Positions 1 through 9,960 of a stretch of DNA of 33,279 nt are shown in pieces. The first letter of the stretch is position 1; every line of letters begins with the position of its first letter. Position numbers and translations under genes: made by a program. Under the pieces are notes generated by a model. The model was given only the letters and a program-made list of their open reading frames with translations. It was not told the origin of the DNA and did not search any database. This stretch comes from Pyrobaculum sp. (GTDB taxonomy: Archaea; Thermoproteota; Thermoprotei; Thermoproteales; Thermoproteaceae): NCBI GenBank assembly GCA_046293555.1, contig JBKBOT010000010.1, positions 1 through 33,279 of the forward strand, written 5' to 3'.

Positions 1-545
1 AACAAGACTTGCGGAAATTCTCGCGTCTTCTCCAGCGCTATACGTATCGCCACTATGAACAACGCCAGAGTTAAAGAGAGGGCTGACAACAATGGCGCTG
101 TCGGCAATATGGCCAACGCAACTACGGCAGCTGCCACAGAGAAGAGAGACGCAAGGCGGCTGTCTATAGACGCCATAGCCATGGATAACAACACCACATA
201 CGCCGCCAACACGGGGAATAGGGCTGGCGGGGCTACATGGTACAGAGAATATGTAGTCAAAAACATCACGGGAATCAGAGATACCAAATTTACCAGAGTG
301 AGATAAAGCCGCGATACGTCAGAAAGGGGGAGGTGGCGCAGTGTCAAGACTTTAGAAACATCTCCAATAGAGATAGCTAAAAGGGCAAATAAGATGTAGT
401 ACACATAGATAGAAAACACCAATTCAGAAAGTACATCGACGCCAAAACTCTGAAGCCACCCCACGCCGACAAGAGGCAACATCATAAAGGCGTAGACGGA
501 CGAGCCTATAATAACAAACAAATATAGCGAAGTTCTAAATAACAT
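1..545 (-). CDS. Polytopic membrane protein, 3' end beyond the window (possible export permease or immunity protein)
   Basis: Not in the ORF track. Translated by hand from ATG 545: MLFRTSLYLFVIIGSSVYAFMMLPLVGVGWLQSFGVDVLSELVFSIYVYYILFALLAISIG...LALFIVAIRIALEKTREFPQVL. The frame is open to position 1 and has about 6 hydrophobic segments. TTTATAT box at 572-566. Confidence 0.8.
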   Translation of the reverse strand, partial: MLFRTSLYLFVIIGSSVYAFMMLPLVGVGWLQSFGVDVLSELVFSIYVYYILFALLAISIGDVSKVLTLRHLPLSDVSRLYLTLVNLVSLIPVMFLTTYSLYHVAPPALFPVLAAYVVLLSMAMASIDSRLASLFSVAAAVVALAILPTAPLLSALSLTLALFIVAIRIALEKTREFPQVL

Positions 546-591: not shown

Positions 592-598
592 AAAAAAA
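592..598 (-). terminator. Oligo-T tract, candidate archaeal terminator for the 611-1036 gene
   Basis: T7 on the minus strand 13 nt after the stop at 611. Confidence 0.45.
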
Positions 599-610
599 CA
601 TTATCAAGAT

Positions 611-1036
611 TTATTTTGCACACGAACAATATATTGTTGTTGAGGGTGGTGTGTAGTTAAAGCTAACACCACAGCCTTCCATTGAGGCTCCTGCTGAAGA
701 ACAAGCAATAACGCATATTCCACACGCCGCTGCATATGTAAGAATAGAGCCGACAATTATTATTACGATGACAAACACTATGCCGTATAGGTATATCTTT
801 CTTCTAGGCGTCTTAAACGCCTTCTCTATCCCAAACGTGGAGCCAGCTGCTATTGCTACCGCAGCCATTAGGAGGGTCGGCGTGTTTCCATAAATTACAT
901 TATCTACTTTCTGTACAAAAAAGTTTGACCCAGGCACGCCGAGGATGTAGGCAAATGTGGCCAACTGCCACAGCGCTATAAACGTTAGAAAGGTAAGCGC
1001 CGCCACTCCCCCGGCGTCTATTAACTTTTGAATCAT
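611..1036 (-). CDS. Membrane protein with C-terminal 6-Cys peptide; putative secreted peptide precursor
   Basis: 141 aa with three hydrophobic segments. The last is preceded by KTPRRK and followed by YAAA, then C-x2-C-x3-C-x9-C-x14-C-x-C. BRE/TATA-like GCGAAATATTTATTAA upstream. The ORF is well supported; the function is inferred. Confidence 0.75.
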   Translation of the reverse strand: MIQKLIDAGGVAALTFLTFIALWQLATFAYILGVPGSNFFVQKVDNVIYGNTPTLLMAAVAIAAGSTFGIEKAFKTPRRKIYLYGIVFVIVIIIVGSILTYAAACGICVIACSSAGASMEGCGVSFNYTPPSTTIYCSCAK

Positions 1037-1083
1037 GGGGTGTTTTTTTTACTTAATAAATATTTCGCTATTATGAGGGGATC

Positions 1084-1302: not shown

Positions 1303-1764
1303 TCAACACTGTTTTTCACATATCTTTACGCCTAGCGCGCCTAGAATGTCGAAGGGTAGTGTGGCTACGTGGGCCAGGAATGGGATTGCTGGGAGCGGGT
1401 CGTAGTGCCATATCGCCATGCCTGTAAAGAAGGGGGCTAGTGGGCCCGCTAGTGCCGATGTTATTGCTCTTACCCCATCTGTCTCCGCCTCTATTCTGAT
1501 CAAACCGCTTTCGTTTATAATCACCACATCTGTATCTAGTATAACGAAGTGTGTAAATTCATGTAACACAATGCTAGCCACAAGAGAGACTGCAGATAGG
1601 AGTAACAGCGGCGTGAGTGTGGGCAATATTAATAACGTCGCCAGCGACGCCGCCGCAAGGGTCAGTACCGTTAATTTAACGAGTCTATTCGATATGACAA
1701 TCGACGCGGCTAGCGTTATGAATTTCATATAGCCTCTTTTCTCCACAACAGCGACCTCAGCCAC
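1303..1764 (-). CDS. Small membrane zinc metalloprotease, M50/site-2-protease-like
   Basis: HEFTH (HEXXH) at the end of a TM helix, downstream ALAGP motif, and TLPFD as a candidate third-ligand motif. TTTTAAAT box at 1791-1784. Confidence 0.7.
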   Translation of the reverse strand: MAEVAVVEKRGYMKFITLAASIVISNRLVKLTVLTLAAASLATLLILPTLTPLLLLSAVSLVASIVLHEFTHFVILDTDVVIINESGLIRIEAETDGVRAITSALAGPLAPFFTGMAIWHYDPLPAIPFLAHVATLPFDILGALGVKICEKQC

Positions 1765-2154: not shown

Positions 2155-2195
2155 CCGCAGAGCAAAAGGTAAAAGGCTTGTTTTTATTATCTATA

Positions 2196-2657
2196 ATGGG
2201 TTATATATATGGCGTACTTCCGCCGATGCCGCCTCTGAGGCCTTTTGTTGGGGTAAGGCCGGTTAAGCCACATATAACTTTGGTGAAAGTTGGGAGGCCT
2301 GTTAAGGTGGAGATTCGCTATAGGCAGTTTGTGGCTCTGGTGGGTCCGCCGGTCTTGTTGCCCAGCGAGGCAAGGCCCCGCTATATTGCGTTGAGAGTTG
2401 AGCCTCATGGCGAGTTCGCGGCGTTGAGGACTCTGCTGGCTTCTGCACTTGGGGGTTTGGTAGAGGAGAGATATCGGGACTTTAGGCCCCACATTACTGT
2501 ATATGAGGTGCGTATAAAACGTCCAACAGCTGGCGACATAGCCCCCGCGGTAGAGGAGATAGAGAGATTTGTGGGGACTGCATTTGAGGTGAAGGCTCTA
2601 TATCTCATAGATACTACAGGCGGCGTGTATAGTCCCATCTACACAATACAGCTGTAG
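2196..2657 (+). CDS. 2H phosphoesterase (2'-5' RNA ligase / RNA 2',3'-cyclic phosphodiesterase family)
   Basis: Two HxT motifs (PHITL, PHITV). ATG 2196 preferred over TTG 2178. Confidence 0.85.
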   Translation: MGYIYGVLPPMPPLRPFVGVRPVKPHITLVKVGRPVKVEIRYRQFVALVGPPVLLPSEARPRYIALRVEPHGEFAALRTLLASALGGLVEERYRDFRPHITVYEVRIKRPTAGDIAPAVEEIERFVGTAFEVKALYLIDTTGGVYSPIYTIQL

Positions 2658-2669
2658 CCACGTTGAGGG

Positions 2670-3299
2670 TTAAAAAGCTAGCTTATTGACGTAATAGAGG
2701 TATTCAGGCTTGTAGTTAGCTATGTCTATGTTTAGGTGGTGGTCGTCAGACACAAGGGTCACAAATCTTCCCCCATGTCTCTGCGCCTCGCAGATCGCCC
2801 CCTCAATTGCTCTACTTACATCATCTGGCGAGACGGCCCACATGTAGTCTATGTTGAAATTCCATCTGTTGAGATATGCCACGTAGGTTGGGTTCTCTAC
2901 GCCAGAAGACAACACGATGTGGTCTGGCCCCGGCGGTGGGTGTCCCTTCACGGAGGCGAGATGTATCCCCGTGGCGCAAGGCCTCGCCGTTGAGTATATA
3001 TAGACAAAGCCCCTGAGTTGGTAAAGCTCTTTTTCAAGCTGCTGGGGGGTGATCAGGATCTTCACGCCGCGCATAGACGTCAGGAAGTCTAGTTTTTTTA
3101 CACGTCTGAGTATTACTATGTAGGCCTCTTCGAGTCTCGGCTTTTCTACAGACCACCTGGCCTTTAAGACACAGCCGTCTACAAGTTTGTATAGTGGTAA
3201 CAACTCTACCACCGGCTTGGCCCAAAAAAGCTTGAGGCGGCCTAGGTGTCTGTACCAAGTGATGAATTCATCTGGGTGGAACGGCTCTAGGCAGGTCAT
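2670..3299 (-). CDS. Hypothetical protein (weak GNAT-like character)
   Basis: 209-aa ORF, start overlaps the stop of the upstream gene (TAATG). Confidence 0.7.
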   Translation of the reverse strand: MTCLEPFHPDEFITWYRHLGRLKLFWAKPVVELLPLYKLVDGCVLKARWSVEKPRLEEAYIVILRRVKKLDFLTSMRGVKILITPQQLEKELYQLRGFVYIYSTARPCATGIHLASVKGHPPPGPDHIVLSSGVENPTYVAYLNRWNFNIDYMWAVSPDDVSRAIEGAICEAQRHGGRFVTLVSDDHHLNIDIANYKPEYLYYVNKLAF

Positions 3300-3661
3300 T
3301 AAGCGAGGAGGGAGTTCCTACGTGTTATCAACTTTTCTAGTTCTGTCAACACAGGTAGGAGAGCAGCATAGTTCTTGTTGGCAAGTAGTGTTAGTAATGT
3401 GTTAAGCTTGTCGAAAATCGCGGCGTCTATCTGTTCGATGTCTTTTTTCGAATGGGGCTTCCCCTCTGCCGACTTTACCTTAACTGTGATCATGTTTACC
3501 GCCTTTAACGCCCTGCCGAGCTCCTCAACGTTATCTATATTGAGCATACGTTTACGTATTTCTGTCTCAATTTCCTTTAGGCCTTTATATATCAGCTGCC
3601 GGATTTTAGGCTCGTCTTCCACAGTCTTATAGCCTGGATATATAAAGAAGCGGGGCGCCAC
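3299..3661 (-). CDS. Hypothetical, largely helical protein
   Basis: 120-aa ORF, Lys/Glu/Leu-rich. GTG start 20 nt from TTTAAA at 3681-3686. Confidence 0.75.
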   Translation of the reverse strand: MAPRFFIYPGYKTVEDEPKIRQLIYKGLKEIETEIRKRMLNIDNVEELGRALKAVNMITVKVKSAEGKPHSKKDIEQIDAAIFDKLNTLLTLLANKNYAALLPVLTELEKLITRRNSLLA

Positions 3662-3680
3662 ATTGAGGTACTGAGGTCAC

Positions 3681-3686
3681 TTTAAA
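3681..3686. promoter_or_regulatory. Palindromic TATA box, candidate bidirectional promoter
   Basis: TTTAAA lies about 20 nt from both divergent start codons (3661 and 3707). Confidence 0.55.
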
Positions 3687-3706
3687 TATCTTTCTTATAC
3701 AAAGGC

Positions 3707-4330
3707 GTGTTGGGGTGGGTCGACCATTTTGATTACTACGGCCCTCTTGTGGACGCCAGGCTGCTAGAAGTTCCAGAATACCTAGTTTCTTCTCTCATAA
3801 TTACCCAATCTGAAGAGGGGTTTAGACACGCGGTGGAGGGGTGGAAAAAATTTGGGACACGTCACGTGGTTGAGGCAGTGTATTCCTATATCCTACAGAC
3901 ACAGCGCGGGCTATTAGACAGGCAGACCCTGTTGTACAAAATTCTCGAAGTTCTTCCAAAAGCCGGAGAGCTGGACATCTTGGCTTTACAACGTGCGTTA
4001 AAACTAGGCCTCGGCGTAACTACATGTGACTTAGGCGTTGTGATACTAGCCTACGTGCCGTTGCCAAACTCCCCACAGCCCCCAAGGCCTGTGGGAACAA
4101 TTTACGAAATTAGACAACACTCCACTATATATATAGCGCGAAATAACCAAGGGCCCCCGGTCTACGATTTTGAAACTATGTGTGTTCTACCTATGGGCGG
4201 CAGGGAGCCATTCCACCCACTTTACAAGGCCTACATGGAGGGGTATAAAATCCTCACGGAAAAAATCCCCACAGAAAGAGATCTCTGCGTTGTACACAAA
4301 AAACTAAATCTCCGGTGTGTATATCTATAA
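3707..4330 (+). CDS. Hypothetical protein
   Basis: 207-aa ORF with protein-like composition and no competing long ORF. Confidence 0.75.
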   Translation: MLGWVDHFDYYGPLVDARLLEVPEYLVSSLIITQSEEGFRHAVEGWKKFGTRHVVEAVYSYILQTQRGLLDRQTLLYKILEVLPKAGELDILALQRALKLGLGVTTCDLGVVILAYVPLPNSPQPPRPVGTIYEIRQHSTIYIARNNQGPPVYDFETMCVLPMGGREPFHPLYKAYMEGYKILTEKIPTERDLCVVHKKLNLRCVYL

Positions 4331-4351
4331 AATAAGTTAACAATCATACTC

Positions 4352-4576
4352 ATGGCACGCTATGTTTCTAGAGTCAGATGTCCCATATGTGGGGTAGAGT
4401 TCCCGCTCACACGTAACGAGGGAGGGGCAGAGGTGATATGTCCCAATGGACACGTTTTTTATATAGATCACGTTATGGATTGTGAGGGACTGGGAATAGA
4501 TTTGCCTTACTTCCATAAACTACGCAACAGACAATTCTGGAGGTTATTCAAAGTGGGAAAATCCCCAATGAACTGA
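4352..4576 (+). CDS. Small zinc-ribbon protein
   Basis: CPICG...CPNGH knuckles, 74 aa. Confidence 0.75.
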   Translation: MARYVSRVRCPICGVEFPLTRNEGGAEVICPNGHVFYIDHVMDCEGLGIDLPYFHKLRNRQFWRLFKVGKSPMN

Positions 4577-4642
4577 CTGTACTTATGAGAAGACTAAAAG
4601 AGGCCGGCATTGTGGTTTGTACATAAGATTTATAGAAGATAA

Positions 4643-5548
4643 ATGTACTTAAGATACCACAAGCCCTTTATCGAGGCAGGCGGCGGCGTTAAAGAGGTTG
4701 GCGTTGAGTGTATGGTATGCCGTAAAGTGGTGGGAAGAGATACTTCGGGAGTTGGGACTTCACCCTATTAGAGAAATTCGCCAGGGCGCTTTTTATATCT
4801 CTTAGACTCCGGGGTTTTGTGAAAGAAGATGGACAAATTAAAAAAGGCCGAACAGACCTGAGTTGCCTACTAATAGTTATGCCGTGGAGTTTGTAGAGCT
4901 CCACGAGTCTTTCAATAGGAGCAGTAAATGTGGCTACCAACAAGGTCGACGAAAATATTCTCGCCATACTATACTCCACAATGTTAAGCCAAGGCTGGTA
5001 TAGAATATTACGACATACCTTCTTAGATTTGGTAAACATACGGGGCTATCAGACAATTTTTGAGCCAATTATTAAGGAGGGACAGTTGGCTATGGCCGTA
5101 CTGGAGATACACAAGCCGAGGCGATACATAGGGTTTGACTAACCGTCAGGACAACATTGAGTTGGCGGCATCTTAACGTAAGGCCAGGGACATGTGATGG
5201 AGAGATATGTATCTTTCATGCTGTCTCAACATGTGATGTTATTAAACTCGTCAAGAGGTCCAGAAGGAGTTGAGGCAGTTCATTTCACACCCTATACTGG
5301 CTGCTTGACCCAGTAAAAGAGCTCCGGTGTGCGGCCTCCTTGTTAACTCCTGGCGGCAGAGTGCTTATAGGCCAACAGTTGTGGAATCCACACCAGGTCT
5401 TATGGCCATGGTTTCCGCTATGGGGGCAAAACATGTCTTTAGCTGGAAAGGGGTTGAGCAAATAGCTAAAGCCGCCGGTGTTGAGCTCGAAAGGCGTTAT
5501 TTAAGATTCGCCCAGTATTACATCGCGATTTGGAGACGGCAGACTTAG
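4643..5548 (+). pseudogene. Frameshifted class I SAM-dependent methyltransferase-like gene
   Basis: Successive frames give QAAALKRLALSVWYAVKWWEEILRELG / LEKFARALFISLRLRGFV / RPELPTNSYAVEFVELHESF / VNVATNKVDEN...TIFEPIIKEGQLA...YIGFD / RQDNIELAAS / YWLLDPVKEL / LTPGGRVLIG / VVESTPGLM...YYIAIWRRQT*. Track ORFs 4930-5142 and 5327-5548 are fragments of it. The 5' boundary is approximate. Confidence 0.7.
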
Positions 5549-6510: not shown

Positions 6511-7344
6511 ATGTTGAGAAGATCTGTCCTAAAATTTCTAGCGGGCACACCTCTGGGGAGACTTCTCGCCGGCGTGTTTACCTCATTTGTTACATCCATT
6601 ATGATTTATATCGACTTGTCAAACCTAGATGTGAGGCGGACCTATGGAAAAGGCGACTCTGTGGTAATGCTGCCATACCCCAAGCTGAAAGGCGTTGTGT
6701 CAGTAGAGGAGGCTTTAGCCAACAGGAGGTCCATACGGGAGTATAGAGACGAGCCCTTAACGCTAGAGGAGTTAGGACAGCTGTTGTGGGCTGCTTACGG
6801 CATCTCAGAGATCACACATGGACTAAGGACTGCGCCCAGCGCGGGGGCTCAATACCCACTAGAGGTCTACGTGGTGGTTAAAGAAGAGGGCGTCAAGACG
6901 GGGGAGGGCTATTTAACTCCGGGGGTGTATCACTACAGCCCACATACCCACAGCCTTTCTCTAATAAAGACGGGAGATTTTGGGAAAGAGCTTTATCACG
7001 CCGCTTTAGAACAAGAGTGGGTCTTAACCGCGCCGGTGTTAATAGTTTTCACGGCCGTGTACCAAAGAACTGTGAGGAGATACGGCGAGAGAGGGCGGGT
7101 GAGATATGTCCCCATGGATTTAGGACATGCCGGCCAGAACGTATACCTCCAAGCCACGGCGCTGGGGCTCGGCACTGTGGCAGTGGGGGCGTTTTATGAC
7201 GACAAGGTAAGAGAAATATTGAGCCTACCAGAGCGGGAGGTGCCGCTATATATAATGCCAGTGGGGCGGCCGGCGACACAGTATAGACTCACAGAGAGAG
7301 AGCTCGTACGGTATCTAGAAAAAAACAGGGGGCCTACCTCTTGA
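6511..7344 (+). CDS. SagB/ThcOx-family FMN nitroreductase with N-terminal twin-arginine-like leader
   Basis: RRSIREY, RTAPSAGAQYPLEVY, DLGHAGQNVYLQATALGLG and VGAFYDD motifs. Confidence 0.9.
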   Translation: MLRRSVLKFLAGTPLGRLLAGVFTSFVTSIMIYIDLSNLDVRRTYGKGDSVVMLPYPKLKGVVSVEEALANRRSIREYRDEPLTLEELGQLLWAAYGISEITHGLRTAPSAGAQYPLEVYVVVKEEGVKTGEGYLTPGVYHYSPHTHSLSLIKTGDFGKELYHAALEQEWVLTAPVLIVFTAVYQRTVRRYGERGRVRYVPMDLGHAGQNVYLQATALGLGTVAVGAFYDDKVREILSLPEREVPLYIMPVGRPATQYRLTERELVRYLEKNRGPTS

Positions 7345-8518
7345 TTAGGTTAAAATACACCTCTGCCACGTTTATCACCTGTCTGATTTCTACATATTCA
7401 TCTGGCGCATGTGCCATGCCGATTGGGCCGGGGCCATACGTAACTGCGGGGATTCCAGCCCTAACGAAAAACCGGGCGTCAAGCCCGCCAATACACACCG
7501 TCCTCCTGGGCCTTCTCCCCAACACTCTCTCAACGGCAGAGGAAAGCGTCTCCACCAGCGGGTGGGTTGTCTCCACCACCACGGCTTCTGACGTATTTAC
7601 AATCTTTACCTCTACTCTATGTGGTACCTCCCTGCTGGCTCTCTCCACAAATTCTATAAACTCCTGTTTTACCAACTCCAAGCTTTCTTCCGGTATTACC
7701 CTCCTGTCTACCGAAAAGGCGAAGTAGCCCGGCACCACGTTTGTCTTTACAGAGCCCCTCACCTCGCCCCCCATTGTCACCGTGGGGGTTGCCCCCCTCG
7801 GGTCGTCAAATTCGTACCTACTCACCCTACTGGAAGTCAGCCTTATGTATTCCTGGAGCCTACTGGCGATATATACGGCACCTTCGAAGGCGTTTAGGCC
7901 AAGCCACGGCGTGGAGCCATGGGCCTGTTTTCCAAAAACCTCTACTAGAAACCAGACGAGCCCCCTGTGTCCAATCCATATGTTGTCCTCGCCGGAGCCC
8001 TCGGCAATTACGACCCACGGCGCCCTTACCTTACCTGACCTCGCCAAATAGCCCGCGCCAGTCTCGCCGCCGATCTCCTCGTCGGGGACAAAAGAAATTT
8101 CGAAATCTCTAAGCCCCGCTCTTACTGCCCTTTCTACTGCAAGCATTATTGCAGTCAAGCCGCCCTTCATGTCCACAGCCCCTCTGCCATATAGCTTTCC
8201 ATCTCTATACACAGGCTCAAAGGGCTTTGTTACCTCCCAGCTTTCTAAAGGCCCTGGCGGCACTACGTCATAATGGCCGTTAAAATGGATTTTAGGCTCG
8301 CCAAGTCTAGCCAACAAGATGGGCCGGGGGTAGTCCGCACATTCTGGACAGTATCTAGCCACCTCTGCCCTGGGCACCTCTACCACCTCGGTGTCTAGCC
8401 CCAACGACCTGAAGTACCTCTCGGCGAAATCTACAAACTCGGCATACCTCTCGCCGGGGGGGTTTACCGTCGGTATTGAGACCAGCTTGCTTAAGAGAGA
8501 CACAGCGGTAGACTCCAC
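7334..8518 (-). CDS. M20 family metallohydrolase (ArgE/DapE-like)
   Basis: FNGHYDVVP, GRGAVDMKGG, DEEIGG, AHAPDEY. Confidence 0.92.
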   Translation of the reverse strand: MESTAVSLLSKLVSIPTVNPPGERYAEFVDFAERYFRSLGLDTEVVEVPRAEVARYCPECADYPRPILLARLGEPKIHFNGHYDVVPPGPLESWEVTKPFEPVYRDGKLYGRGAVDMKGGLTAIMLAVERAVRAGLRDFEISFVPDEEIGGETGAGYLARSGKVRAPWVVIAEGSGEDNIWIGHRGLVWFLVEVFGKQAHGSTPWLGLNAFEGAVYIASRLQEYIRLTSSRVSRYEFDDPRGATPTVTMGGEVRGSVKTNVVPGYFAFSVDRRVIPEESLELVKQEFIEFVERASREVPHRVEVKIVNTSEAVVVETTHPLVETLSSAVERVLGRRPRRTVCIGGLDARFFVRAGIPAVTYGPGPIGMAHAPDEYVEIRQVINVAEVYFNLIKR

Positions 8519-8574
8519 ACAGTGGACACATCTCTACTTTAAATTTGTTTTAATACCTCTGCCGTCTCTACCCC

Positions 8575-9330
8575 GTGAGGTGTGTCCTCGTGTTATCGCG
8601 TGGAGACCCTGTGTCTAGCACCCTTTTAGACATTCTCACATTGCCGCTGAAGGAGAGAGGTGGGGTAGAGGTGGGGCAGCTGGGCGAGATGCCTGTAATA
8701 GTTTTCGAGGGAGAACCCACAGAATTTAGTAGAGAGGACGTGGCGGCATCTCTAGGCGACTGTGCCGTCTTTATCTCCCGCCACGAGATGGCTAACCCAC
8801 GCCCGTTATTTGCCGTCCATACGCCGGGCTCGTGGCCAGAGGTGTCTATCGCAAATCCATGTCTTGTATCTACCCTATACCGAGAGTTATGTAGATCCGC
8901 CTATGGGGATTTTAAATGTGTCATAGAGGCTACCCACCATCCGCCAAACACCTCCCTCATTTCTGCGGTATTTCTAGAGGTGGGGAGTGGGGAGAAGGAG
9001 TGGAGAGACAGGGGGGCAGTAGCCACACTGCTGTCAGTACTACAAAAGGCCGTGGCTGGATACGGGGAATGCGCCAACCCCACCATGGTGATAGGAGATC
9101 TACATTACACAACTGTAGCCAGCCAGGTGGCCGACGGGACAATAGACGTGGGCCACATCGTGCCTAAATATATAGAAATTACTCTAGATGTTGTAAAAAA
9201 CGCCCTCGGGAGACATACGGCCCCCATAAGGAAGGCGATAATATTCCGAAAAAATGTAAAAAACCCACATAGAAGAGAGATATTGGAGTACCTGAGCGAG
9301 AGGGGGGTCGAGGTCGTCCTAAAGGGATAG
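8575..9330 (+). CDS. dtdA: Archaeal D-aminoacyl-tRNA deacylase (DTD2)
   Basis: FISRH, VHTPG, EATHHPP, FLEVGS, GHIVPKY. Confidence 0.88.
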   Translation: MRCVLVLSRGDPVSSTLLDILTLPLKERGGVEVGQLGEMPVIVFEGEPTEFSREDVAASLGDCAVFISRHEMANPRPLFAVHTPGSWPEVSIANPCLVSTLYRELCRSAYGDFKCVIEATHHPPNTSLISAVFLEVGSGEKEWRDRGAVATLLSVLQKAVAGYGECANPTMVIGDLHYTTVASQVADGTIDVGHIVPKYIEITLDVVKNALGRHTAPIRKAIIFRKNVKNPHRREILEYLSERGVEVVLKG

Positions 9331-9339
9331 CTGGCGCCA

Positions 9340-9960
9340 ATGAGCTGCAGACCTGTAATATTTGACCCCATGGAGTGGACATATGTCATGAAGCTTGCGT
9401 GGACGTTATTGCCGGAGCTTTCCTTTAGAGAAGACAGCACGGCGGCCCATAGGGCAAGTAGGCTCGGGGGGATGGACATAAGAGCCCTCAAAGATCTGGA
9501 CTGGGGCGAGCCGGTGGTATACATGCCGCCATTTGAGAAAACGGCCTACGGCACCGTGGTGGTGGCCGTAGAGGGATATACCGTGAGGAAACTCCATAGG
9601 CGTGGAGTAAAGGCAGACGTGGTGGTAAGCGATATGGATTTCGAGCCGGAAGGCCTCTCCGAGGTGCGACATGTGGTGATGCACGTACATGGCGACAACT
9701 ATTGGAAAGTCCCAAAAAGGGATTGGATATATACGGTACAGACTTGGCCCACCGGGTGTACACATAACATCTCCGGGTTTACAGATGGAGATAGGGCTAT
9801 ATACCTCGCATATTACATGGGGGCCAGGGGGGTGGCCATATCGGGTTTCTATCCACAGGTGGCCGTGAAGAGAGACGACTGGGTTAAAAGAAGAAAGCTA
9901 AAAATTGCGTCACATCTAGTGGAGAGACTCGCCAGAAGGATAGACGTCAAATTTTTCTAA
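9340..9960 (+). CDS. mptE: MptE-like 6-hydroxymethylpterin diphosphokinase (DUF115)
   Basis: VVSDMD, HVHGDN, GFTDGDRA, KRRKLKIA. Confidence 0.75.
   Translation: MSCRPVIFDPMEWTYVMKLAWTLLPELSFREDSTAAHRASRLGGMDIRALKDLDWGEPVVYMPPFEKTAYGTVVVAVEGYTVRKLHRRGVKADVVVSDMDFEPEGLSEVRHVVMHVHGDNYWKVPKRDWIYTVQTWPTGCTHNISGFTDGDRAIYLAYYMGARGVAISGFYPQVAVKRDDWVKRRKLKIASHLVERLARRIDVKFF

Follow-up and report, generated by a model that had tools for sequence, protein, structure and literature searches.

A six-cysteine C-terminal domain with a predicted CS-alpha-beta-like fold in an archaeal family of small membrane proteins

Main finding

The window analysed here (the whole stretch of 33,279 nucleotides from Pyrobaculum sp., contig JBKBOT010000010.1) encodes P0001, a three-helix membrane protein of 141 aa, the product of a gene which will be referred to as gene A. 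The C-terminal tail of P0001 carries six Cys and is predicted to adopt an alpha-beta-beta arrangement which, as judged from structural models, resembles most closely that of the cysteine-stabilised alpha-beta (CS-alpha-beta) peptides, the scores being modest and the domain very small. Considering the conservation of the tail and the neighbourhoods in which gene A was observed, it is tentatively suggested, with a likelihood that comes near to even without reaching it, that the tail constitutes a tethered, disulfide-stapled ectodomain which acts together with an ABC-2-type exporter module. Three other readings of the same data are considered below, each where the evidence that bears on it is described.

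Gene A and its cysteine tail

Gene A was identified from its open reading frame and translation at positions 611..1036 of the reverse strand, with nt 611-613 being its stop codon. An AT-rich, TATA-like box (1053..1065, reverse strand) was read from the sequence 17-29 nt upstream of the gene A ATG and may function as promoter, and a T7 tract (592..598, reverse strand), which locates 13-19 nt past the stop codon, is a candidate archaeal terminator. A search of sequencing runs listed one DNA run, from a hot-spring metagenome that is possibly the sample of origin, and no RNA run. Residues 105-141 (614..724, reverse strand), which read CGICVIACSSAGASMEGCGVSFNYTPPSTTIYCSCAK, make up the Cys tail, whose definition considers the AF2 secondary structure, pLDDT values, Cys conservation and structural matches. 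All six Cys of P0001 reside within these final 37 of 141 residues, for which, assuming uniform placement, P = (37/141)^6 = 3.3e-4 was obtained; the resulting Cys share of 6/37 compares to 0.88% (80 of 9076 residues) in those ORFs of the window that comprise at least 200 aa. The Cys spacing, determined by eye and by script, is C-x2-C-x3-C-x9-C-x14-C-x-C (gaps of 2, 3, 9, 14 and 1 residues). A first-pass annotation, made from the letters of this stretch, had reported the same residues, the six Cys and this spacing as a defensin-like pattern in an archaeal peptide, and in this respect it was borne out by translation and script. Its caveats that the peptide is not cationic and possesses no exact GxC were correct as well, given that the tail contains one E and one K, resulting in a net charge of 0, and that no G-x-C was found ahead of C4. 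An N-x-T glycosylation sequon (N126-T128; window 653-661, reverse strand) is located in the first hairpin strand of P0001; the family does not conserve it.

Distribution and conservation of the family

No match to P0001 was obtained in Pfam, NCBIfam, PADLOC or PHROGs. A single-protein search of a set of 5.8 billion proteins returned P0001 itself only, and that of 1.8 billion representatives yielded three weak matches besides self, one of which is a chance match to a repeat protein, while weak relatives of P0001 were found by six-frame searches of related genomes. Profile search of the order then located gene A in 10 of 62 genomes, with one copy per genome, all ten belonging to one family and two genera (5 of 17 and 4 of 9 genomes, respectively, and the window's own genome). 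When searched with the profile, the 5.8-billion-protein set contributed 82 family proteins, all of them being unnamed or recorded as 'hypothetical' or 'uncharacterized membrane protein' and one stemming from a record of Thermoproteus sp.; the carriers of the family are a few hot-spring archaea, among whose proteins P0001 is an outlier with 22-30% identity to the other members.

In the 49-sequence alignment of complete members, C122, C137 and C139 were found in 49/49 sequences, C105 and C112 in 48/49 and C108 in 46/49. As the Cys columns are thus kept in 46-49 of 49 members, the Cys pattern of P0001 is, on the evidence of the alignment, selected and not due to chance. Losses of a single Cys affect C1, C2 or C3 in one sequence each and, these losses being unpaired, are uninformative on the pairing. 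The commonest spacing, C-x2-C-x4-C-x7-C-x12-C-x-C, is shared by 27 of the 49 members, whereby the gap between C2 and C3 measures x4 in 37 and x3 (CxxxC) in ten, the window protein included, with one of the two Cys missing in the remaining two. The CS-alpha-beta signature which the first-pass annotation had recognized therein divides into a terminal CxC, which holds for all 49 members, and a CxxxC, which holds for the window protein but for a minority of the family only. As CxxxC occurs in 10 of 49 members only, the canonical helix-to-strand register cannot hold family-wide. Mean pairwise identity within the family amounts to 0.65-0.69 from TM1 to loop 2, to 0.44 in TM3 and to 0.49 in the tail. 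Since the latter value falls to 0.38 when Cys-Cys columns are left out, which makes the non-Cys residues of the tail the most variable ones of the protein, the family appears to combine a fixed Cys scaffold with variable loops, and conserved Cys with variable loops is also what the earlier annotation had proposed to look for among homologues.

A scaffold of this kind, with its tail identity of 0.38 outside the Cys as compared to 0.65-0.69 from TM1 to loop 2, is likewise what would be expected from a pro-archaeocin, in which cleavage at the outer end of TM3, or inside that end, would set free the last 37-44 residues as a defensin-like toxin or signal with three disulfides, with the membrane part and/or the ABC module providing export and self-immunity. 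The patchy occurrence of gene A (10 of 62 genomes) points in the same direction. We consider this reading unlikely, yet deserving of attention at each step of the argument. The tails are not cationic, with net charges that range from -4 to +2 across the family, and a dN/dS excess of the tail, which would be in line with such a role, was not seen for the genome pair G014/G015, where the tail (33 codons) gave 0.57 and the membrane part (100 codons) 0.84, codon numbers that are too low for the comparison to carry weight. This pair was the one usable among ten genome pairs, nine showing saturation in the membrane part, the tail or both.

Membrane anchor and topology

The first 104 residues of P0001 are hydrophobic and are predicted to form three membrane spans. 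Regional identities mark the TM1-loop-TM2 module (residues 1-70; 827..1036, reverse strand) as the best conserved part of the family, and conservation of the N-terminal part beyond that of a usual leader argues against the pro-archaeocin. The module is followed by the basic loop IEKAFKTPRRK (residues 71-80; 797..826, reverse strand), in which the alignments reveal an almost invariant P-R-R motif and which is taken to be cytoplasmic, and by TM3 (residues 81-104; 725..796, reverse strand), for which a Kyte-Doolittle 19-residue mean of 2.4-2.9 was calculated and which is continuous with the Cys-bearing helix (AF2 helix 79-114). Because the P-R-R loop and also the N-termini of the P0001 relatives are basic, we infer by the positive-inside rule that P0001 adopts an N-in topology with three spans and C-out, which would place the tail outside the cell. 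As the helix bearing C105, C108 and C112 is modelled as an unbroken continuation of TM3, the Cys domain is predicted to sit directly on the membrane surface, without a linker.

The first-pass annotation had spoken of a three-disulfide peptide, possibly a toxin or signal. The idea of a separate peptide did not endure, as the tail is the C-terminus of a protein with three TM helices. When 120 genomes of the class were searched with a tail-only profile, the strong matches were those of nine genomes with the membrane-anchored gene, one copy each, and the four weaker ones (E 0.002-0.004) cover the profile partially, three of them containing stop codons. A free-standing tail ORF was not found in these 120 genomes, and a word-based search of the 5.8-billion-protein set identified no protein of 18-74 aa that matches the tail profile. 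Within the reach of these searches, the tail was met on a membrane anchor only, and the 'peptide' half of the earlier idea fails, the domain being part of a membrane protein, namely its ectodomain. The same results, including that neither free-standing nor multi-copy tails were encountered, weigh against the pro-archaeocin, as does the unbroken helix that leads from the membrane into the Cys region, with no linker and no recognisable processing or cleavage motif between TM3 and tail.

In favour of processing, the TM1-TM2 module of gene A was found fused to a CPBP/Rce1-like protease in one relative (G001). There, the N-terminus (about 80 residues) of a 291-aa protein (PF02517; L004:1486-2361, forward strand) shares 42% identity with residues 4-75 of P0001 (BLASTP E 1e-8), i.e., the N-terminal extension of this protease possesses the TM1-loop-TM2 module, whereas the protease core is absent from the gene A product and the CPBP homologues of the window's own genome come without the module. 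CPBP denotes the 'CAAX protease and bacteriocin-processing' family. Among the 61 other genomes of the order, one showed the fusion, which, being a single case, hints only weakly at a link in function. Next to the CPBP/Rce1-like gene of G001 there is a divergently oriented DUF1616 gene.

Predicted fold of the tail

The AlphaFold2 model of full-length P0001, which was run on the 49-sequence alignment, comprises three helices (2-31, 55-64, 79-114) and two strands (118-127, 132-140), and its pLDDT, averaged by block, is 88-95 over residues 91-140 and 40-61 over residues 31-80. Within this model, C105, C108 and C112 locate to the end of the third helix, C122 to strand 118-127 and C137 and C139 to strand 132-140. 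A model of the tail only (44 residues, same homologues) yielded helix and hairpin again, with a mean pLDDT of 83.3. The helix plus beta-hairpin that had been expected for the tail is thus recovered in the prediction, with the helix extending to residue 114. Strand register and helix periodicity of the model suggest C105-C122, C108-C137 and C112-C139 to be the most likely disulfide pairs.

For structural comparison, the first-pass annotation had proposed a Foldseek- or DALI-type search. Foldseek against the PDB revealed nothing at E <= 0.001, neither for the full-length model (39 weak rows) nor for the tail-only model (142 weak rows), and the matches listed are headed by ACT-like alpha-beta-beta pieces, with no defensin among them. 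VIA-align, which was run against 48,161 representative chains and is independent of Foldseek, identified AtLURE1.2 (5yah_C) as best match of the tail, with Z 4.8, rmsd 1.9 A, 35/39 residues and 23% identity, and termicin (Z 3.4, 33/36) and eurocin (Z 3.1, 37/42) were found among its best 50 matches. Also among the 140 aligned candidates coming from Foldseek, AtLURE1.2 (5y9w_C) ranked best (Z 5.0, rmsd 1.2 A, 34/37 residues, 24% identity), hence the predicted tail backbone superposes with this peptide at 1.2-1.9 A over 34-35 residues. In the structural account of PMC5673899, residues 53-89 of LURE1.2 are given as typical of the CS-alpha-beta fold, the helix having two strands packed against it. 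The Z values are to be read with the warning of the alignment tool that Z < 8 may mean a merely common arrangement, and AtLURE1.2 is set apart by no more than 1 Z unit from many alpha-beta-beta pieces of a generic kind (POTRA, baseplate proteins, the APP copper-binding domain). The attainable Z is low for a model of 44 residues, and the matches span almost all of the small target peptides. On the level of sequence, phmmer of the tail against the PDB sequences gave one chance match (E 0.9, a viral spike) and Pfam no family for P0001 at E <= 1, hence neither points to defensin homology, and the ESM Atlas returned for the gene A product feature matches of 0.78-0.80 with structural TM scores that were all < 0.4 and are leads only. 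The CS-alpha-beta-like fold, as predicted, would suit the pro-archaeocin as well as a tethered domain.

The six thiols of the tail could bind metal instead of forming disulfides. Accordingly modified, the model would assume that Cu, Zn, Fe or a thiophilic metalloid is coordinated by the six thiolates on the surface of the membrane, whereby the tail would feed or sense for the ABC exporter, a role we hold to be very unlikely. It is prompted by the six conserved Cys, which include CxxC and CxC pairs, by the APP copper-binding domain (Z 3.8-4.1) and HypA (Z 3.0-3.4) being among the structural matches and by the ABC ATPase of the operons described below, to which CcmA and metal-transport ATPases are among the nearest models, none reaching its cut-off. 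As judged from secondary structure, the Cys are spread over about ten helix residues and both strands and would form no single site, and the predicted location outside the cell would leave the thiols exposed to oxidation. To our knowledge, the spacing of the six Cys fits no Fe-S or zinc-ribbon motif, which further counts against metal binding, and no metal-handling genes were identified in the gene A operons by Pfam and NCBIfam. An Fe-S reading of the tail had been set aside for the reason that the tail is predicted outside the cell and that no matching motif is known to us.

Gene A in the operons of relatives

In 6 of the 10 gene-A genomes (G002, G008, G014, G015, G026 and G027), gene A directly adjoins, or overlaps with, the gene of a polytopic membrane protein of 336-382 aa (B), and in five of these six an ABC ATPase is encoded within the same operon. 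The order A, B, C, D, E was observed in G002, G014 and G015 and, with a longer C ORF, also in G008; the operon of G026 reads A-B-D-E and is devoid of C. Here, C is a membrane protein of about 141 aa with the motif HE[ST]xQY, D is the ABC ATPase of about 200 aa (PF00005, E 3.7e-17 in G002) and E, a protein of about 145 aa, comes last. The NCBIfam models nearest to D are those of GldA, DrrA, CcmA and of metal-transport and lantibiotic-protection ATPases, all of which scored below cut-off. Pfam and NCBIfam gave no family match for B, C and E and no permease match for B or its counterpart in the window (B', see below), and PADLOC and PHROGs revealed nothing for A, B, B', C, C' (the window counterpart of C) and E, and generic ATPase matches for D only. 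For B, the ESM Atlas provided feature matches of 0.85-0.87, among them 'ABC transporter permease' with 0.86, which are leads below the threshold of 0.9. Complex prediction with the B and A proteins of G002 resulted in a score of 0.01, which weighs neither for nor against binding.

Two copies of gene A were found without ABC genes alongside, namely that of G001, which contains an in-frame TAG, and that of G021, which is distributed over two overlapping frames; both look decayed on the sequence level. In G022, the contig ends inside gene A.

The A-to-E operon of G015 is flanked by inverted copies of a gene coding for a coiled-coil-like protein of 180-191 aa (L020:3566-4327 and 8702-9470), the arms of the inverted repeat reaching 251 nt in length and a complementarity of 98%. 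As these inverted gene copies bracket the operon, it is suggested to be an invertible or mobile cassette. The decayed gene A of G001 resides between the genes of a peptidase M20 and a D-aminoacyl-tRNA deacylase (L016/L028). In the window these two genes are adjacent (7334-9330), with 56 nt between them, and gene A is found 6.3 kb away, hence the gene has changed its place between close relatives.

The window locus

In the window, gene A is neighboured by C' upstream and by B' downstream. B' (3..545, reverse strand), identified as ORF, comprises the N-terminal 181 aa of a polytopic membrane protein and is cut by the end of the contig; it gave no Pfam match, and since the contig ends inside B', the window has no ATPase within it. 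A paralogue of B', a protein of 437 aa, is encoded on contig C39 (BLASTP 33% identity over 127 aa, E 2e-11), where it directly precedes an ABC ATPase (PF00005, E 5e-23) which, at 40-44% identity, is the best D homologue of the genome. This pair (C39:1817-3783, L023) is without gene A alongside and is followed by a DUF1616 gene. A second copy of the ATPase gene, with 90% DNA identity to the C39 copy and its N-terminus cut, was located at the end of contig C18 (C18:29750-30304, L024). The C18 copy may be the missing continuation of the window locus, and the ATPase repeat probably broke the assembly just before base 1 of the window. B' is not regarded as a homologue of B, as hhalign probabilities of 0.4-0.6% were obtained for both the window piece and the full C39 paralogue against the B alignment.

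C' (1303..1764, reverse strand) is a membrane protein of 153 aa with the motif HEFTH and was assigned by comparison to gene C, with an hhalign probability of 90.9% (E 1.1e-6) against the alignment of four C sequences and 36% identity over 72 aa in tblastn; for C and C' alike, Pfam gave no match. The metalloprotease-like HExxH is peculiar to the C' of the window, and in 4 of 4 aligned relatives the second His is replaced by Q (HE[ST]xQY or QEATQY). The HExxH of C' counts in favour of the pro-archaeocin; against it stands that the C proteins of all four relatives, with Q for the second His, are unlikely to be zincins.

An AT-rich spacer separates the T7 tract of gene A from the B' start at 545, and with its own promoter-like box and T-tract gene A of the window appears to be a transcription unit of its own. 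Such an arrangement would be in accordance with the view that the gene product is a stand-alone small membrane protein, whose disulfide-rich cap is merely stabilising and whose proximity to ABC genes is without functional meaning. That B and B' are unrelated and that the copies of G001 and G021 lack neighbouring ABC genes fits this view too, to which we nonetheless give little credence, given that A runs directly up to or into B in six genomes, that a C-type gene and an ABC-type neighbourhood persist through the rearrangement that distinguishes the window from the relatives, and that both orphan copies look decayed.

For the tethered ectodomain acting with an exporter module, the points in favour are that the tail is always found on the anchor, that A and B are adjacent in six genomes and that the ATPase belongs to the operon in five. 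It is confronted with structural matches whose Z of about 5 differs by less than 1 unit from that of many generic alpha-beta-beta matches, with the lack of a Foldseek match at E <= 0.001, with CxxxC in 10 of 49 members, with the promoter-like box that gene A possesses in the window and with the G001 and G021 copies, which are devoid of ABC genes. The missing relation between B and B' also stands against it, as such a lack of similarity would be odd for a fixed structural partner of A.

Just upstream of the locus and on the opposite strand, the window encodes a 2'-5' RNA ligase / LigT-like phosphoesterase of 159 aa (2178-2657, forward strand; PF13563, E 1e-8). Four ORFs of 116-209 aa without Pfam match at E <= 1e-5 (2670-5039) lie between the locus and the housekeeping genes, which fill the remainder of the window.

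Comparison with known systems

The CS-alpha-beta peptides AtLURE1.2, termicin, eurocin and actifensin likewise comprise about 40 residues with six Cys, and a helix with two antiparallel strands behind it, the last of which bears a terminal CxC. Their CxxxC on the helix is shared by the window protein, while C-x4-C is found in most family members. The tail differs from defensins in being fused to the end of a three-TM anchor instead of being secreted behind a signal or leader peptide, in carrying its C1 on the same helix as C2 and C3, in being neutral and not cationic, in its archaeal host and in the lack of sequence similarity. A search of the open-access literature brought up reviews and unrelated papers only, and no account of a CS-alpha-beta domain from Archaea, an absence which is not proof. 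What is new here would thus be a known type of fold, as predicted by modelling, in a new domain of life and in a new architectural context.

Two antimicrobial systems provide precedents for the pro-archaeocin. The halocin C8 product contains ten Cys. Pfam found nothing for P0001, and no similarity to the halocin precursor ProC8 was seen. For actifensin, a bacterial defensin-like bacteriocin, the description of its loci in PMC6989792 places ABC transporter and protease genes in the cluster. Halocin C8 is, according to the account given in bioRxiv 10.64898/2026.07.27.741052, cut from the C-terminus of the 283-aa ProC8, the N-terminal part of which serves as immunity protein, with ABC genes alongside. 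ProC8 of haloarchaea hence resembles the gene A product in its archaeal origin, in joining a Cys-rich, very stable C-terminal part to a larger N-terminal part and in its adjoining ABC genes. It differs in that the same account portrays it as Tat-secreted and soluble, with 283 aa and a product of 76 aa, in having no three-TM anchor, and in that its cleavage was demonstrated, that of the gene A product being hypothetical.

With respect to the neighbouring genes, ABC-2-type exporter and self-protection modules such as DrrAB, CcmAB and the lantibiotic LanFEG with its membrane-anchored LanI offer themselves for comparison. Like the gene A operon, these combine a short ATPase of about 200 aa, to whose kind (DrrA, CcmA, GldA and lantibiotic-protection models) D comes nearest, with polytopic membrane partners and a small membrane-anchored extracellular component in one operon. 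The gene A operon departs from them in that its ATPase scores below the curated cut-offs and that B, B', C and E are without family match. We know of no ABC accessory subunit with the fold predicted for the tail.

Proposed model and its meaning

The suggested model assumes that the gene A product is a small integral membrane protein with N-in orientation, three TM helices and C-out. The third helix would exit the membrane carrying C105, C108 and C112, and the hairpin with C122, C137 and C139 would fold back onto this Cys helix, whereby three disulfides (C105-C122, C108-C137 and C112-C139) would staple the hairpin to the helix. The outer face of the membrane would thereby directly bear a mini-domain of about 40 residues, CS-alpha-beta-like and very resistant to heat. 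Finally, the mini-domain is suggested to remain tethered and to partner the neighbouring ABC-2-type exporter module, consisting of the polytopic protein, the HExx[H/Q] protein and the ABC ATPase, where it would likely serve as an extracellular recognition, self-protection or gating element.

A more far-reaching version, in our estimation rather improbable, holds that the tail is the first archaeal CS-alpha-beta domain in a membrane-tethered pro-form, in which the triple-disulfide tail of about 40 residues would be cut at the outer end of TM3 to yield a hyperthermostable archaeocin or signal, with the three-TM part and the ABC module protecting and equipping the producer.

Should the tail turn out to be a stabilising cap only, what is left is that a membrane protein family confined to one lineage has been annotated. 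In eukaryotes, few scaffolds of defence and signalling are as widespread as the CS-alpha-beta peptides, and the few bacterial examples have fed a debate on a prokaryotic origin. If a released archaeocin were true, Thermoproteaceae would possess a peptide weapon of a kind known so far from eukaryotes and a few bacteria, and this would bear on the origin of the defensin fold. Being small and probably stable near 100 C, the domain lends itself readily to synthesis, to mass spectrometry and to the determination of its structure. As an archaeal family with a predicted CS-alpha-beta fold on a membrane anchor beside an ABC exporter, the gene A products would represent both a new context for this fold and a new kind of component of an uncharacterised ABC system of hyperthermophiles.
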